Positions 2,582-61,330 of a stretch of 64,000 bases of DNA are shown here, one piece after another (position 1 is the first letter of the stretch; the number at the start of each line of letters is the position of its first letter). The translations under genes and the position numbers were made by a program. Source of the DNA: Escherichia virus TH54; sequence record MT446420.1, one strand, 5' to 3'. The notes under the pieces are model-generated. The model saw nothing but the letters and a program-made list of their open reading frames with translations. It was not told the origin of the DNA and did no database searches.

Positions 2582-3142
2582 TTAAGAGTTCATAGTTGGG
2601 ATAACAGAGTTCAGATAAGAGACTAAAACTTTTAGCTCGTCTTTAGTAAATACCACTTCACTTTCGCCGTCATGTCTTTGGACAATGGACAACAAGTCAC
2701 GGCCGTTATGTTGATGCACAGTCAGTTCAGTATTATAATCTAATTCCTCTTCATCGCCTTCAAACGTTTCGCTAGAGCGAATCAGTGCGTCTTGTCCTGG
2801 GACTTTCCATTCAACTTCTGGTTTACATTCTTCCTGGAACAGTTTGAAAATACAATCAAAGAATTTATCAGAATCGCTGATGCTCAGACATTCAATACCA
2901 TTTTCTAAATTAAACCCGTTTTCGTTTTTATAGATATAGGCATACATATCATCATTGATATCAACAGGAGCACTAGCACGACCATTAAGATAATCGTGTC
3001 TATCCAAAACCATTAAATCATAAAGCGGTTTAATATCAGCGATAGTCAGTACGATTTTATCGTCTTCTTGACAAAGCTCAATTGCGTTATTAACTACTTC
3101 AGCGGTCAGTTCGCCAAACAATTCAGTTGTTTCAATAATCAT
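2582..3142 (-). CDS. hypothetical acidic protein
   Basis: 186-aa ORF in a tightly packed minus-strand gene run. Confidence 0.45.
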   Translation of the reverse strand: MIIETTELFGELTAEVVNNAIELCQEDDKIVLTIADIKPLYDLMVLDRHDYLNGRASAPVDINDDMYAYIYKNENGFNLENGIECLSISDSDKFFDCIFKLFQEECKPEVEWKVPGQDALIRSSETFEGDEEELDYNTELTVHQHNGRDLLSIVQRHDGESEVVFTKDELKVLVSYLNSVIPTMNS

Positions 3143-3152
3143 TTTCTGTTCC

Positions 3153-3368
3153 TCAACGGTTATGTTTTAAAATACTATAAAGTGCTTCTACTTGGCTTGC
3201 ATCCAGGTAAATAACATCATCATCTTGCTCAATGGAAATCCCACCAGTATTACCTTTAACAAAATTACATTCGCACACTTCAACCGGGCGGTATACGTCA
3301 CCAACTGGATGCTCAGGCTCCAGAACAATCACACCATTTTCAGAATTACCACTTGGGTCATATAACAT
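3153..3368 (-). CDS. hypothetical small protein
   Basis: ORF with internal ATG at 3368 preceded by GAGGAA; track start is TTG. Confidence 0.35.
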   Translation of the reverse strand: MLYDPSGNSENGVIVLEPEHPVGDVYRPVEVCECNFVKGNTGGISIEQDDDVIYLDASQVEALYSILKHNR

Positions 3369-11200: not shown

Positions 11201-11258
11201 TATATTCCATTGTTTGGTTGATAAAATCATTATACAACCTTTTTAGTTAAGCGTACAC
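11201..11258 (-). promoter_or_regulatory. early promoter (-35 GTGTAC, -10 TATAAT)
   Basis: minus strand TGTACG-N17-TATAAT upstream of ATG 11198. Confidence 0.5.
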
Positions 11259-11663
11259 AGCTTTCCCATAGTATTTGTACCAGGTAGGCTTTTGAGAAAT
11301 TTTCTCATTCAGTCTGGCTTGACTGATTTCAATTGACCAGATTGATGGTTGATAATCATTTTTCCATTCATCAGGAATATCACTTAAATCTTGGGTAGAA
11401 ATATCTTTTATGTTAAACCCTCGCTTTAAACATTCTGCAATAAGTTCTTGATGACGGTTTTTAAGGAACAAAAGTTTATCATAAAAGAAGGTAACATGAC
11501 CAGTCCCTAAAAGAAAAGATGATGGGATTTTAAAGTCAGAAACCTTTTTACCATTTTGCACATGCTTACGAACAGCACCAAACACGCGAGGAAGTTCACG
11601 ATATTCAGCCATAAGATGTTGGTCAGCGAGTTCAGATACCAGGGTTAAATTAATGCGAGTCAT
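11247..11663 (-). CDS. denV: endonuclease V (pyrimidine dimer DNA glycosylase)
   Basis: 138 aa, [34 protein letters not shown]...; near-identical to T4 DenV. Confidence 0.9.
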
Positions 11664-26887: not shown

Positions 26888-26972
26888 AGTGCACCTTGTT
26901 TGCTTTAAAACAATCAGTGTTATAATGGTTCTAGACCTTTTGTCCTTACCAATAACACTGACCGATAATAGA

Positions 26973-49108: not shown

Positions 49109-51088
49109 ATGGCTTTATTATCCCCGGGCATTGAGCTCAAAGAAACAACGGTCCAAAGCACTGTTGTTCGTAACGCGACGGGTCGTGCGGCGCTGGTTGG
49201 TAAATTCCAGTGGGGCCCAGCTTTCCAGGTAACTCAAATTACAAACGAAGTGGAACTTGTCGATTTGTTTGGTGGTCCGAACAATATTACGGCTGACTAC
49301 TTTATGAGTGGAATGAACTTCCTTCAATATGGTAATGACCTGCGCACAGTTCGTGTTGTTAACCGTGAATTTGCTAAAAACGCATCCCCAGTAGCAGGGA
49401 ACATCGAAAGCACAATCGCTACTGCAGGTTCTAACTATGCAGTCGGTGACGTTATCCAGGTTAAACACAACCAGACTGTTGTTGAAACCGCTGGCCGTAT
49501 CACCAAGGTTGACGTTGACGGGAAAATCCTTGCGGTCTTCATTCCGTCTGACAAAATTATTGCCTTTGCAAAATCTGTAAATCAGTATCCTGCTTTAGGC
49601 CCGGCTTGGACTGCTGAAATCCTGACCACTTCTTCAGGTGTGTCTGGTACGATTACCCTTGGAAAAATTGTTACCGATTCTGGTATCCTGTTGACCGAAG
49701 CGGAAAATAGTGAAGAAGCTATTACCTCTCTGGAATTTCAGGCTTCCCTACAGAAATATGCAATGCCAGGTGTTGTTGCTCTTTATCCTGGTGAAATCGG
49801 CTCGACTCTCGAAGTTGAAATCGTTTCCAAAGCTGCTTATGATGCTGGTGCTTCGAAGATGTTGGATATTTATCCAGGCGGCGGTTCCCGTGCTTCTGTA
49901 GCTCGTGCGGTGTTTAACTACGGACCACAGTCTGACGACCAGTATGCAATCATCGTTCGTCGTGATGGTGCTATCGTTGAAAACGTTGTTCTGTCAACTA
50001 AAGAAGGCGATAAAGACGTTTACGGCAACAACATTTATCTGGACGACTACTTTGCAAAAGGTACTTCCAATTACATCTATGCAACTTCTCTGAACTGGCC
50101 AAAAGGCTTTGCAGGCATCATCAATCTGATGGGCGGTATTTCTGCAAACGACCAGGTTACTGCTGGTGATTTGATGCAAGGTTGGGACCTGTTTGCTGAC
50201 CGTGAAGCACTGCATATTAACCTGCTTATCGCTGGTGCTTGTGCTGGTGAAGGTGATGCGACTGCTTCCACTGTTCAGAAGCACGTAGTTTCTATCGCTG
50301 ACGAACGTCAGGATTGCCTGGCATTTATCTCTCCACCGAAAGGTCTGTTGGTTAACGTTCCCCTGACCCGCGCAGTGGATAACCTGATTGACTGGCGTAC
50401 GGGTGCTGGTGCATTTGATACTGATAACATGAATATCAGCACGACTTATGCAGCGATTGATGGTAACTATAAATATCAGTATGATAAATATAACGACGTT
50501 AACCGTTGGGTTCCTCTGGCAGCTGATATGGCTGGTCTGTGTGCTCGTACTGATGATATTTCTCAGCCTTGGATGTCTCCAGCCGGTTATAACCGTGGTC
50601 AGATTCTGAACGTTCTGAAATTGGCAATCGAACCTCGCCAGACCCAACGTGACCGCATGTATCAAGAAGCTATCAACCCAGTTGTTGGTTTCGCAGGTGG
50701 TGATGGTTTTGTTCTGTATGGTGATAAGACTGCAACTAAAGTTCCATCTCCGATGGACCATATTAACGTTCGTCGTCTTACGAATATGCTGAAGAAAAAT
50801 ATCGGTGACGCATCCAAATATAAACTGTTTGAGCTTAACGATAACTTCACTCGTGCATCATTCCGTATGGAAACTTCTCAATACTTGGATGGTATTCGTG
50901 CGCTTGGTGGCATTTATGAAGGTCGTGTGGTTTGTGATACTACTAACAACACCCCGTCGGTCATTGACCGAAATGAGTTTGTTGCTAGCATTTATTTTAA
51001 ACCCGCGCGCAGCATCAACTACATCACTCTTAACTTCGTGGCAACAAGCACGGGTGCGGATTTTGATGAGCTGATTGGGCCACAATAA
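49109..51088 (+). CDS. 18: tail sheath protein gp18
   Basis: 659 aa. Confidence 0.92.
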   Translation: MALLSPGIELKETTVQSTVVRNATGRAALVGKFQWGPAFQVTQITNEVELVDLFGGPNNITADYFMSGMNFLQYGNDLRTVRVVNREFAKNASPVAGNIESTIATAGSNYAVGDVIQVKHNQTVVETAGRITKVDVDGKILAVFIPSDKIIAFAKSVNQYPALGPAWTAEILTTSSGVSGTITLGKIVTDSGILLTEAENSEEAITSLEFQASLQKYAMPGVVALYPGEIGSTLEVEIVSKAAYDAGASKMLDIYPGGGSRASVARAVFNYGPQSDDQYAIIVRRDGAIVENVVLSTKEGDKDVYGNNIYLDDYFAKGTSNYIYATSLNWPKGFAGIINLMGGISANDQVTAGDLMQGWDLFADREALHINLLIAGACAGEGDATASTVQKHVVSIADERQDCLAFISPPKGLLVNVPLTRAVDNLIDWRTGAGAFDTDNMNISTTYAAIDGNYKYQYDKYNDVNRWVPLAADMAGLCARTDDISQPWMSPAGYNRGQILNVLKLAIEPRQTQRDRMYQEAINPVVGFAGGDGFVLYGDKTATKVPSPMDHINVRRLTNMLKKNIGDASKYKLFELNDNFTRASFRMETSQYLDGIRALGGIYEGRVVCDTTNNTPSVIDRNEFVASIYFKPARSINYITLNFVATSTGADFDELIGPQ

Positions 51089-51146
51089 TTATCATCGCTT
51101 AGAATGAATTAACTAGCAGCAAAACCGTAGAACCATTATACAGTGC

Positions 51147-51154
51147 TATAAATA
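51147..51154 (+). promoter_or_regulatory. late promoter TATAAATA inside inverted repeat, upstream of gene 19
   Basis: octamer lies in loop between CCGTAGAACC and GGTTCTACGG arms. Confidence 0.45.
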
Positions 51155-51233
51155 AAAGCATAATCGGTTCTACGGGCTCCTGTGGTTGATTCTGGGAAGC
51201 CATTATCTTGAGATGATGAATCATATTACCTAG

Positions 51234-51241
51234 TATAAATA
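51234..51241 (+). promoter_or_regulatory. late promoter TATAAATA for gene 19
   Basis: second exact octamer about 50 nt upstream of ATG 51294. Confidence 0.5.
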
Positions 51242-51293
51242 CATGCATCAGGGGCGCGTACGCGCGACCTGTGTCTATAAAGAGGATTCCTTA

Positions 51294-51785
51294 ATGGAGT
51301 TGACCGATATCACACGCGCTTTCGAATCCGGTGACTTTGCTCGCCCTAACCTGTTCGAAGTCGAAATCCCGTTCCTGGGTAAAAACTTTGCTTTCCATTG
51401 TAAAGCAGCCCCGATGCCAGCAGGCATTGTAGAAAAAGTTCCTGTCGGTTACATGAACCGTAAAATCAACGTTGCGGGCGACCGTACATTTGATGACTGG
51501 ACTATTACGATTTATAACGACGATGCTCATAAAGTTCGTCAAGCAATTGTTGATTGGCAAAACCTGTGTCACGGTATGACTAACGAAATCACCGGTGCAG
51601 CTCCTGCTGATTATAAGAAAACCGCTACTGTTCGTCAGTTCCATCGTGATGGTAAGACCGTTACGAAAGAAGTTGTTATTACCGGCATGTGGCCAACCAA
51701 CGTTGGGGAAGTCCAGATGGATTGGGACAGTAACAACGAAATTGAAACGTTCGAAGCAACGTTCGCAATTGACTGGTGGGAATAA
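51294..51785 (+). CDS. 19: tail tube protein gp19
   Basis: 163 aa from MELTDITRAFESGDFARPNLFEVEI; near-identical to T4 gp19. Confidence 0.9.
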   Translation: MELTDITRAFESGDFARPNLFEVEIPFLGKNFAFHCKAAPMPAGIVEKVPVGYMNRKINVAGDRTFDDWTITIYNDDAHKVRQAIVDWQNLCHGMTNEITGAAPADYKKTATVRQFHRDGKTVTKEVVITGMWPTNVGEVQMDWDSNNEIETFEATFAIDWWE

Positions 51786-57610: not shown

Positions 57611-58891
57611 ATGGCAAAGATTAACAAATTACTGCGCGAGTCAACTATTACTACCAGCAACTCCTTGGGCCGCCCGAATCTTGTTGCTTTGACCCGCGCT
57701 ACGACTAAATTGATTTACCGCGATATCATCGCTGAACAACGTACTAACCAGCCTGTTGCTGCACTGTATGGTGTTAAATATCTTACTCCTGATAACGAAT
57801 TCAGTTTCCAGACGGGCGCTACTTATGGAGGTGAAGTCGGTTCTAAAGACCGTACAACTATTCCAGAGTTAGCTACAGCCACTCAGCCTGTGGCTAAAGG
57901 CGAATATGTAAAATACCAAAATATCGTTTACAAAGCTCTGGTTGATAATCCATTTGCATCGACCACAGAAACAGTGTTATCTGATGTTCTGCAAGAAGGT
58001 CTTATTGCATCGACTATTCGCCTTGTTCCTGATGCAGCACACACCGAGAAATTTGAAACCGGTGATGTTGAAATTAGCAATGCTGTATTCCAGGTTAACA
58101 AATGGAATGCTCCGGTTAAAACACGTAAATTGAAAACTGCATTAACTGTTGAACTTGCCCAGGATATGGAAGCAAATGGTTTTAATGCTCCTGCTTTCTT
58201 AGAAGACCTGCTTGCCACTATTATGGCAGATGAAATTAACAAAGATGTTCTTCAGTCTCTTATTACCGTTTCCAAGCGTTATAAAGTAACTGGCGTTTCT
58301 GACAATGGTTCGGTTGATTTGACATATGATGCAGCCCCGGAAGGCGCACGTAAACTGTATGAACTGGTTTGCGAAATGAACTCCGAAATTCAGAAAACTA
58401 CATCTTATTCCGGTACCTTTGTTGTTGCCTCTAGCCGTGTTGCTGCTATGTTGGCCGGTTCTGGTTGGTTGAAACACAGACCAGAAGATGAGCAATGGCT
58501 CCCCGAAACCGCTTATGGATATTTGATTAATGGTCTCCCTGTATTCTGTGATGTTAACAGCCCATTGGATTATGTAACCGTTGGCGTTAAAGAAAATTAC
58601 GGCGGAAACGAAGTCGTAGGTTCAATCTTCTATGCTCCTTATACCGAAGGCCTGGACTTGGATGATGAAGAGCACGTGGGCGCGTTTAAGGTCATCGTGG
58701 ACCCAGACAGCTTGCAGCCATCTATCTCCCTGATGGTTCGATATGCACTTTCAGCCAACCCTTACACCGTTGCTAAAGACGATAAAGAAGCTCGTATTAT
58801 CGATGCAACCAATATGGATTTAATGGCCGGTCAGAGCAACATGTCTTATCTGCTCGGTGTTAAACTTCCGCCAATCATTTATGAGGCGTAA
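57611..58891 (+). CDS. 24: capsid vertex protein gp24
   Basis: 426 aa; MAKINKLLRESTITTSNSLGRPNLVALTRATTKLIY close to T4 gp24. Confidence 0.9.
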   Translation: MAKINKLLRESTITTSNSLGRPNLVALTRATTKLIYRDIIAEQRTNQPVAALYGVKYLTPDNEFSFQTGATYGGEVGSKDRTTIPELATATQPVAKGEYVKYQNIVYKALVDNPFASTTETVLSDVLQEGLIASTIRLVPDAAHTEKFETGDVEISNAVFQVNKWNAPVKTRKLKTALTVELAQDMEANGFNAPAFLEDLLATIMADEINKDVLQSLITVSKRYKVTGVSDNGSVDLTYDAAPEGARKLYELVCEMNSEIQKTTSYSGTFVVASSRVAAMLAGSGWLKHRPEDEQWLPETAYGYLINGLPVFCDVNSPLDYVTVGVKENYGGNEVVGSIFYAPYTEGLDLDDEEHVGAFKVIVDPDSLQPSISLMVRYALSANPYTVAKDDKEARIIDATNMDLMAGQSNMSYLLGVKLPPIIYEA

Positions 58892-60175
58892 ATGCAAAAG
58901 ATTAATGCACTAATTCACGAATCAACATTAACGGCGGCCAACCAGGTCGCCCGTCCTAATTTGCTTTCTTATACACAGGCTACGAATAAACGAATTTTTA
59001 AAGCACTCGTGGCCGAGCAGAAAACTACCCAGCCTGTTGCAGCGCTGTATGGTGTTCGTGTTCTGAACCCAGATGATAAAATGACTTATCTCGGTGGAGC
59101 AACATTCGCGGGCCAGATTGGTATGTTCGAGCGTAAGAATATCCCAGAATTTACGAACAAAGACGAAGCTTATGCAGTCGGCGATATGTTTCAGTTTGAA
59201 AGTGTTGTATTCAAAGTTCTGGAAGCTTCACCCTTTGCCGGGACACTCGAAACTGATTTAGGTGAAGTTATTTCTGAAGCCATTGCTGCTGGACATATAA
59301 GAATGATGTCAGATGCTGCTTTCACTGATAAATTTGAAAAGGGGCATCCTGAAATTGCTGAAGCTGGGTTCCGTATCGATAAATGGCAGACTGAAGTTAA
59401 ATCCAGAAAGTTGAAAACTTCTTTAACTGTCGAGCTTGCCCAGGACCTGGAAGCAAACGGTTTCGATGCAACAGACTTCATCGATAATATTCTCGGCATT
59501 CAAATGGCAGAGGAAATTAATAAGGATGTATTGCAATCCCTTATTACTGTTAGTTCCCGCTTCAAGGTACAAGGTGTTTCTGAAAAAGGCGTCCTGAATC
59601 TTACTGACCCGAAATATGATAACGCACAGGACCGCGCACGAACCCTGTATTATTATATGTGTGAAATGAATTCTGCAGTTCAACGTCAGACTTCGTTTGC
59701 TGGTACATATGCGGTTGCTTCTTCCCGTTGTGCAGCTATTTTAGCCGCTTCTGGTTGGGTTGAGAAAAAGGAAGACCAAGATGAATTAGCCTATGGTGTT
59801 CTGAAGAATGGTTTGCCTCTTTATGCGGATATGAATAGTCCATGCGATTATGTTATTGTTGGTGTAAATGCGGATATGGGCGAGGGTCAGACGGTCGCAT
59901 CTTTGTATTATGCGCCTTATACGGAAGGGCTTAGCGAAGTTGATGATGAGGGTGATACCTCGGTTGGGGAATTCAAGGTTATTGTTGACCCTGAAAGCTT
60001 ACAGCCTACGGTTGCACTGTTAGCTCGTTATGCTTTGACTGCTAACCCTTACACCGTTGCTAAAGACGATAAAGAAGCCCGCATTATTGATGGAGCTGAT
60101 ATGGATAAGATGGCCAACCAAAGCCAATTGAGTTCTTATCTTGGTGTTAAACTTCCACCACTGGAAAAAGAATAA
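58892..60175 (+). CDS. second gp24-like capsid vertex paralog
   Basis: 427 aa colinear with upstream gp24 (shared SRKLKT..TVELAQD, LQSLITVS, YAPYTEGL, ANPYTVAKDDKEARIID) but more divergent. Confidence 0.85.
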   Translation: MQKINALIHESTLTAANQVARPNLLSYTQATNKRIFKALVAEQKTTQPVAALYGVRVLNPDDKMTYLGGATFAGQIGMFERKNIPEFTNKDEAYAVGDMFQFESVVFKVLEASPFAGTLETDLGEVISEAIAAGHIRMMSDAAFTDKFEKGHPEIAEAGFRIDKWQTEVKSRKLKTSLTVELAQDLEANGFDATDFIDNILGIQMAEEINKDVLQSLITVSSRFKVQGVSEKGVLNLTDPKYDNAQDRARTLYYYMCEMNSAVQRQTSFAGTYAVASSRCAAILAASGWVEKKEDQDELAYGVLKNGLPLYADMNSPCDYVIVGVNADMGEGQTVASLYYAPYTEGLSEVDDEGDTSVGEFKVIVDPESLQPTVALLARYALTANPYTVAKDDKEARIIDGADMDKMANQSQLSSYLGVKLPPLEKE

Positions 60176-61201: not shown

Positions 61202-61330
61202 ATTCTCTCACTTTTGATGTTATAAATATCATTATAAATTAGACCCACTATACTTTCTTTCTCTGAAAGGAATTAATAGTCGTAAAGGGTCTAGAACCAT
61301 TATACCGCATTTTTATTTGAAGCAAAAAGG

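Follow-up and report, generated by a model that had tools for sequence, protein, structure and literature searches.

The gene 18–gene 19 spacer and its inverted repeat

We analysed a 64,000-nucleotide (nt) stretch of Escherichia virus TH54 (MT446420.1; hereafter "the window", whose numbering is used unless a segment of another phage is named), and in it a palindromic element within the 205-nt spacer between gene 18 (tail sheath, 659 amino acids (aa), plus strand, 49109–51088) and gene 19 (tail tube, 163 aa, plus strand, 51294–51785), both of which were identified via annotated relatives. The window belongs to Gaprivervirus (SP18/VR20 group) and shares, over this region, 91–97% identity with Escherichia and Shigella phages SP18, VR20, VR25, VR7 and others. 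A first-pass annotation had described here, at 51121–51180, a 10-base-pair (bp) inverted repeat around a late promoter. The repeat is real and enclosed by that span, its 5′ arm CCGTAGAACC (plus strand, 51125–51134) being the perfect complement of its 3′ arm GGTTCTACGG (plus strand, 51166–51175); the loop between them measures 31 nt, not the 32 nt given at first, and the whole block (51125–51175) 51 bp. The gene 19 Shine-Dalgarno sequence AAGAGGA (plus strand, 51280–51286) and start codon (ATG, 51294–51296) are invariant in relatives and lie outside the hairpin that the arms would form.

Perfect 10-bp inverted repeats with a loop of 3–40 nt occur six times in the window against 3.3 ± 2.0 expected from first-order Markov simulations, and therefore the repeat by itself is not significant. 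The 51-bp element is nevertheless beyond chance, as shown by its RNA fold, by the conservation of block and arms, and by the enrichment of the late promoter motif TATAAATA, which are presented in turn below. A 61-nt RNA covering the block folds at −20.1 kcal/mol, compared to −6.6 ± 2.1 kcal/mol for shuffled sequences (z = −6.5), and 0 of 200 shuffles folded as well. Past its 10 bp the main stem continues with a 1-nt bulge and three further pairs, an apical 5-bp helix closes a 9-nt loop (AUAAAUAAA), and folding of the whole spacer adds a possible 10-bp lower helix (~51106–51115 with 51183–51192). Together, lower helix, 10-bp stem and apical helices make up an extended RNA structure that is predicted on gene 18 read-through transcripts (plus strand, 51106–51194). 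In a scan for a repeated element defined by the arm, CCGTAGAACC was found nowhere else in the window, and Rfam gave no match at E ≤ 1 for either strand of 50900–51450.

The spacers of the relatives fall into three architectures. Type A (the window, SP18, VR20, VR25 and others) consists of gene 18, spacer and gene 19, whilst type B (VR7, RZ, DK-13, TH57 and DCP80) carries a 201-aa open reading frame (ORF), 19.1, directly after the gene 18 stop codon, with the hairpin next. In type C (VR26) the order is gene 18, a small hairpin, a stretch of ~40 bp that matches the loop but lacks the arms, a 227-aa ORF homologous to 19.1 (35% identical to the 201-aa version) and gene 19; the VR26 hairpin after gene 18, GGGGA-TGAAAG-TCCCC plus a T-rich tail, differs from the one in the window.

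The spacer is thus an insertion hot spot for ORF 19.1 (201 or 227 aa; phrog_5104), with insertion points that differ among phages; the ORF occupies positions 890–1495 and 2643–3326 of the VR7 and VR26 segments, respectively, and Bp7 (segment positions 282–334) has another ORF in the same spacer. A motif in ORF 19.1, DHKVSI...NLE..WE.NR.K, looks HNH-like, and there is a weak PHROG match to endonuclease VII (E = 9 × 10−4), together with no Pfam match and no PDB sequence match; a homing-endonuclease identity is a lead. In VR7 the ORF is preceded by a 9-bp inverted repeat of its own, UGCGCGUAU/AUACGCGCA (segment positions 850–889), which encloses a separate TATAAATA and abuts the Shine-Dalgarno sequence AAGGA, and this upstream layout in the VR7 group is the classic T4 layout of late-expressed homing-endonuclease genes.

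Two predicted late promoters precede the tail-tube gene

The loop contains an exact TATAAATA (plus strand, 51147–51154), as had been noted at first, which matches the late promoter consensus, lies at the apex of the hairpin and stands 140 nt upstream of the gene 19 ATG. A second, proximal copy (plus strand, 51234–51241), invariant in the relatives that have the segment, follows 87 nt downstream, start to start, rather than the 80 nt first reported. The motif is four-fold enriched in the window (19 sites vs. 5.0 expected), with every site on the strand of the local late genes. The loop copy is invariant in all 15 aligned relatives, VR26 included, and hence across all three spacer architectures; in VR26 this core TATAAATA is the only late promoter between the post-gene-18 hairpin and genes 19.1′/19. 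Similar arrangements recur outside the genus: the T4 18–19 spacer has two copies of TATAAATA, each directly after a small hairpin, and in Serratia phage PS2 the 3′ arm of the hairpin after gene 18 runs into TATAAATA. Taken together, the T4, PS2 and VR26 spacers indicate that a post-gene-18 hairpin partnered with gene 19 late promoters is a general T4-like pattern. The late transcription proteins gp55, gp33 and gp45 are all annotated in the congeneric VR7 (outside the window). The proposal of a late promoter in the loop has thus held up well: given the exact consensus, the right spacer and strand, invariance in three architectures and the two copies in T4, it is very likely, and can be stated with fairly high confidence on sequence grounds, that the loop TATAAATA is a genuine late promoter for the tail-tube gene. 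A start site a few bases downstream of it would leave out the 5′ arm (51125–51134).

The surroundings of the proximal copy have features of their own. The block around it (51199–51267) resembles a diverged tandem copy of the first block (core 22/32 identical), the two being linked by a 15-nt direct repeat (87% identical, spacing 87 nt), and its minus strand shows a decayed box and −10 (TGCAT ... TAATAT-GATTCAT). A GC-rich hairpin with the core palindrome GCGCGTACGCGC (plus strand, 51251–51274) lies near the 5′ end of the predicted transcript from the proximal promoter, with a fold z of −1.5 only, and JS98 has a different 8-bp hairpin in the corresponding place. A candidate plus-strand sigma-70-type promoter, TATACA-N16-CATAAT, is weak, is changed in the VR7 group by an insertion of 2 nt, and was not relied on.

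The minus strand of the block matches MotA-type middle promoters

The first-pass annotation missed the minus strand, where the same block holds a near-consensus MotA-type middle promoter (predicted, minus strand, 51135–51160). It reads TTATGCTTTT-N13-TATAAT-GGTTCTA, with the box running from 51162 down to 51153, a 13-bp spacer, and the −10 from 51140 down to 51135; the predicted start lies near 51128, in the direction antisense into the 3′ end of gene 18. The arms are part of this layout. Read on the minus strand, the 5′ arm is GGTTCTACGG and comes directly downstream of the −10, and the 3′ arm is an inverted copy of this promoter start region, placed just upstream of the promoter's MotA box. 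Within this promoter's spacer sits the late TATAAATA, and a change of TATAAATA to TATACATA would alter that spacer only. In T4 the MotA box has the consensus (a/t)(a/t)(a/t)TGCTTtA, is centred near −30, lies 12 ± 1 bp from an excellent sigma-70 −10, and tolerates single deviations (PMC2988021); the box in the 18/19 spacer has an exact TGCTT core, the spacing is 13 bp and the TATAAT is perfect, in agreement with that description. Both motA and asiA are annotated in VR7 (outside the window).

The match extends to other spacers. TGCTT-N15-TATAATGG occurs in exactly three spacers of the window, at 26901 (plus strand), 51160 (minus) and 61324 (minus), and TGCTT-N14-GTATAATGG with at most one mismatch returns these three sites only. 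The copy at 61324 lies just upstream of rnlB, on the rnlB coding strand, and a mapped T4 middle promoter, PrnlB, serves rnlB (PMC2988021). T4 PrnlB was rejected as a sequence ortholog of the rnlB promoter in the window, since it lies inside gene 24.2 and has a deviant box; the two are equivalent in role only. The T4 promoter P34i (the oriG promoter), TTTGCTTCA-N13-TATAATGGT, is found on the strand opposite to gene 34 and has the same layout as the 18/19 block. On the minus strand of VR7 gene 34 (~1930–1970 of the segment) we observed a near-identical P34i/oriG copy, TTTGCTTCAAGAATATTCAGCGTATAATGGTCCCAGAG, which indicates that an oriG-type antisense promoter is conserved in the genus.

When the window and the rest of the VR7 genome were surveyed for TATAATGGTTCTA, allowing one mismatch, seven cassettes emerged, four sense and three antisense. 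The sense cassettes belong to uvsY (the position of T4 oriF), rnlB, cd.3 and nrdC.6, and the antisense cassettes all lie in spacers of co-directional genes, namely modA/srd, gene 2/gene 3 and gene 18/gene 19. At the level of sequence, the 18/19 block is therefore a member of the phage group's middle-promoter family, pointing back into gene 18. As to the individual cassettes, the gene 2/gene 3 spacer (26899–26961; both genes on the minus strand) has a plus-strand consensus MotA-type promoter, TTTGCTTTA-N13-TATAAT-GGTTCTAGACC, antisense to late genes, and the VR7 modA/srd antisense cassette (segment 11622–11700) has a CGCTT box and TATAATGGTTCTA. The latter was considered as a T4 oriA homolog and rejected, the T4 record placing oriA at the gene 56 promoter. 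The rnlB promoter region (61238–61305) contains a second, degenerate direct copy of the −10 plus start motif (GTATAGTGGGTCTAA), and the 5′ leader of the rnlB transcript is predicted to fold into a hairpin through the 7-bp repeat TAGACCC/GGGTCTA.

The block is a conserved island whose core can persist without the repeat

The first-pass annotation had proposed conservation of the repeat in relatives as a check, and the palindrome is indeed conserved within the genus, both arms being invariant in 14 relatives. Across types A and B, only 2 of the 51 columns of the block vary (it also has a single 2-nt insertion), compared to 44 of 94 in the flanking spacer (Fisher p = 1.7 × 10−8), and the block is therefore a conserved island in which the loop is as conserved as the arms. 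The sole variable positions, 51143 and 51146, are among the six bases that are part of none of the three motifs (−10, MotA box and TATAAATA). In VR26 the retained segment, 91.7% identical, begins exactly with the MotA box and ends just past the −10, and its flanks are unalignable; VR26 has no 3′ arm, and its core folds like shuffled sequences (z = −0.7). This shows that the promoter core can exist without the inverted repeat.

Several observations bear on the form in which the repeat would act. Both arms have CGG where other cassettes have GAC, and therefore the arms follow each other and not the family consensus, as expected from selection for pairing or from an inverted duplication. The apical and lower helices use G·U pairs, which are A·C on the other strand, and, counted over ten type A relatives, the plus-strand structure has 99.1% of its cells paired vs. 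88.0% for the minus-strand mirror structure, an edge that is partly built in, as the structure was predicted on the plus strand. When IMG/VR and a metagenome collection were scanned for the promoter core, just three known isolates and one contig were returned. The metagenomic contig has a variant 5′ arm, CCGTAGAATC (C-to-T), and an unchanged 3′ arm, so that a C–G pair becomes U·G on plus-strand RNA only and the symmetry of the DNA is broken. The G·U pairs, the strand comparison and the CCGTAGAATC variant favour a plus-strand RNA hairpin. An intrinsic (Rho-independent) terminator on the plus strand was ruled out by the 31-nt loop and the absence of a U-tract: a terminator scan did not call the hairpin at the block, and the sequence after the stem on the plus strand is GGGCUCCUGUGG. 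On the minus strand, UUUU comes after the hairpin. Judged by its position and by analogy with the small post-gene-18 hairpins of T4, PS2 and VR26, the hairpin would most likely serve as a 3′-end or processing structure for gene 18 mRNA.

Inverted repeats accompany the antisense cassettes

A perfect 10-bp repeat encloses or adjoins each of the three antisense cassettes (at 51125/51166 and 26914/26952 in the window and at 11622/11685 in VR7), and no repeat of at least 9 bp was found at the four sense cassettes. Such repeats (loop 3–60 nt) number 21 in ~177 kb, or ~0.013 per 160-nt segment, and therefore three out of three has a chance probability of the order of 2 × 10−6. The association between antisense cassettes and repeats is a new regularity that needs an explanation. 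The arm sequences of the three repeats are unrelated and their positions relative to the −10 differ, which speaks against one shared DNA-binding protein, and likewise against the repeats being the termini of a single mobile element, and fits a sequence-independent structural role. The repeat at modA/srd is formed by the −10 regions of two divergent promoters, the partner being an early-type promoter for srd (TGTACA-N16-TATAAT-GATTC), and the gene 2/gene 3 repeat (26914–26923 / 26952–26961) gives a late-sense RNA fold of −23.9 kcal/mol (z = −4.3) that is followed by the U-rich UUGUUUUAAA.

The sister genus Dhakavirus (JS98 and relatives) has in its 18–19 spacer an unrelated 8(+5)-bp repeat, TCCCAGGC/GCCTGGGA, which brackets an antisense sigma-70-type promoter sequence, TGTACG-N18-TATAATGGTTTTAGG; this block is nearly invariant, and the late TATAAATA lies outside it. 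Comparison of JS98 with the window indicates that what the two genera share is a bracketed antisense promoter, and not a bracketed late promoter. One might go further and regard repeat-bracketed antisense MotA-type cassettes as a distinct functional class in Gaprivervirus and Dhakavirus, acting as extra oriF/oriG-type R-loop origins or as middle-time sources of antisense RNA against the 3′ ends of upstream messages, with the repeat as a structural part; we hold this generalization to be possible, yet unlikely.

Comparison with known composite signals

In T4, late promoters inside regulatory hairpins are known from genes e, soc, 49, I-TevI/II/III and segB, and from mobE of Aeh1, and this device hides the ribosome-binding site on early/middle read-through RNA (PMC3014915, PMC2988022). 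The 18/19 block resembles the e/soc/I-TevI type in that TATAAATA stands within an inverted repeat, read-through RNA is predicted to form the hairpin, and late transcripts are without the 5′ arm. It differs in that the read-through RNA is itself late and the gene 19 Shine-Dalgarno sequence is >100 nt from the hairpin. Sequestration of a ribosome-binding site as in e/I-TevI was rejected, there being no Shine-Dalgarno sequence, start codon or ORF start in the hairpin (51125–51175, extended to 51194). The first-pass suggestion that DNA or RNA structure could occlude or expose the late promoter finds no indication either, as the known T4 device sequesters a ribosome-binding site and this hairpin has none.

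With T4 P34i (oriG) and PuvsY (oriF), the minus-strand promoter has in common the TGCTT box, the 13-bp spacing, the perfect TATAAT and the GGT, its layout being identical to that of P34i and of the uvsY and rnlB promoters of the genus, and like P34i it is antisense to a late gene. Unlike P34i and PuvsY, it lies in a spacer, has a nested late promoter and is bracketed by an inverted repeat; T4 is without an equivalent at this position. The PeSL/PmSL promoter–terminator cassettes of T4-like phages (Arbiol 2010; Comeau 2014), which are composites of stem-loop and promoter near indels (PMC4122927), are similar in combining a small stem-loop with an early/middle-type promoter, in the multiplicity of the family (seven copies here), and in the 19.1 indels on either side. 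In PeSL/PmSL, however, the stem-loop precedes the promoter and the cassette ends in a Shine-Dalgarno sequence and start codon in hyperplastic regions, whereas the 18/19 arms enclose the promoter, at −35 to −26 and +6 to +15 relative to the first −10 base, and the block sits in a conserved structural module with only gene 18, antisense, downstream on the minus strand. T4, PS2 and VR26 share with the window a stable hairpin plus TATAAATA just after the gene 18 stop codon. Their hairpins are short and GC-rich, with 4–6-nt loops and the promoter after or overlapping the 3′ arm, while the hairpin of the window is enlarged and holds the predicted late and antisense promoters in its loop.

Interpretation of the 51-bp block

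With moderate confidence, we read 51125–51175 as a compact, conserved, dyad-symmetric block of putative bidirectional promoters whose arms would form a hairpin on gene 18 read-through RNA. On the plus strand, its centre would act as a gp55-type late promoter that, with the second TATAAATA, starts late transcription afresh for the tail-tube gene. Read on the minus strand, these bases would serve as a MotA/AsiA-type middle promoter, firing before late transcription and backwards into the 3′ end of gene 18, and its product may be an antisense RNA or, possibly, a primer of the origin type. In late read-through transcripts from gene 18, the arms would pair as the base of a long hairpin, taking the place of the small stable post-gene-18 hairpin of other T4-like phages; transcripts from the internal late promoter would begin in the loop and hence could not form it. 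The predicted signals are of known kinds, combined in a new arrangement. Three signal classes in 51 bp (late promoter, antisense middle promoter and RNA hairpin) would make the block a clear case of dense regulatory packing in T4-like phages. If the antisense promoter is active, it would yield RNA complementary to the 3′ end of the tail-sheath message at middle times, or initiate replication, neither of which has been described for T4 here. Each of the T4 origins oriA, oriF and oriG coincides with a middle promoter, which makes the antisense ones in late-gene spacers candidates for additional origins. If the antisense promoter is silent, what is left is an ordinary intercistronic hairpin with a late promoter, a routine finding.

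A number of points weigh against this bidirectional reading. All promoters here are predicted from sequence, the MotA box ends in T and not in A, and the antisense promoter serves no gene and could be a tolerated by-product of the promoter cassette; moreover, T4 is without a mapped middle promoter anywhere between genes 1 and rnlB (PMC2988021). As to the hairpin, the 13 main-stem pairs never vary and are hence uninformative on pairing, the hairpin-bearing relatives being 85–98% identical, and covariation in the outer helix is not above shuffled controls (161/500), with one compensatory and several wobble changes. The hairpin is without a plus-strand U-tract and so is not an intrinsic terminator, its stabilising or processing role is proposed by analogy only, and VR26 manages without the repeat.

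Among the alternatives, the simplest is a plain intercistronic RNA hairpin with a late promoter in an AT-rich loop, the minus-strand match being an inactive coincidence or a fossil. It agrees with the general pairing of a stable hairpin and a late promoter after gene 18 in T4-like phages, with the strong thermodynamic signal, and with a minus strand that has no gene downstream in a region where T4 is without a mapped middle promoter. We nevertheless consider it unlikely: the loop is conserved like the arms, the bases conserved in it coincide exactly with the −10, the MotA box and TATAAATA, chance cannot explain a spaced match of 19 bases to two further spacer promoters, and VR26 retains the core from MotA box to −10 yet loses the hairpin.

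A second alternative concerns replication. The block could be an origin of the T4 oriF/oriG type, at which the antisense transcript would stay in place as an R-loop within the AT-rich spacer and serve as primer for the leading strand, and where the repeat would structure displaced or single-stranded DNA. In the annotation of T4, oriG is given as a middle promoter within late gene 34, with primer RNA opposite to the gene, and oriA is placed at the gene 56 promoter, where the mapped T4 middle promoter P56/69 lies; the 18/19 cassette is of the same sequence type as P34i and the VR7 uvsY promoter, and downstream of it follow 36 nt of variable spacer, the covering 60-nt windows having 33% G+C vs. 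42–48% in adjacent windows. Set against this are the lack of a demonstrable unwinding element, the position of one arm upstream of the promoter and thus outside any R-loop, and the lack of a T4 origin here. We hold this role to be distinctly unlikely.

The composition of the spacer also invites comparison with mobile DNA. As a PmSL-like mobile regulatory cassette, or as a scar or target of 19.1 insertions, the block would matter for recombination and gene shuffling, with no bearing on how genes 18 and 19 are expressed. In favour of this, the spacer is a hot spot for insertions, with the 201-aa ORF before the block in VR7, RZ, DK-13, TH57 and DCP80, the 227-aa ORF after the core in VR26 and the Bp7 ORF; PeSL/PmSL are stem-loop and promoter composites beside indels (PMC4122927); UUUU follows the hairpin on the minus strand; and the start regions of the cassettes are nearly identical. 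We regard this as improbable, as PeSL/PmSL have their stem-loop ahead of the promoter and a gene with its Shine-Dalgarno sequence behind it, whereas the 18/19 promoter is flanked by the arms and leads into no gene; furthermore, phages that carry the insertion have the same block as those that do not, and ORF 19.1 is without a confirmed nuclease family. Finally, the first-pass idea of a protein-binding site, in the form of a DNA operator at which a dimeric protein of phage or host would occupy the two 10-bp half-sites (41 bp between their centres) and switch between the divergent promoters, accounts for the perfect dyad symmetry, the invariant arms and a half-site spacing near four helical turns, but is very improbable in view of the unrelated arms and differing positions relative to the −10 at the three antisense cassettes, the different JS98 repeat, the absence of the repeat from VR26, and the CCGTAGAATC variant, which breaks the DNA symmetry and keeps an RNA wobble pair.

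Other features of the window

Two adjacent ORFs of ~427 aa lie at 57611–58891 and 58892–60175, and the VR7 counterparts of both (segment positions 1–2067) are annotated as capsid vertex protein gp24, i.e., a tandem duplication of gene 24. A near-identical family of early-type promoters, (G)TGTACA-N17-CATAATGATTCCATACTGAGTTAC, is present on the minus strand at 76, 19571, 20086 and 20973, with a related copy at 11234, and the start region of these promoters, GATTCCA, resembles the GGTTCTA of the middle cassettes.

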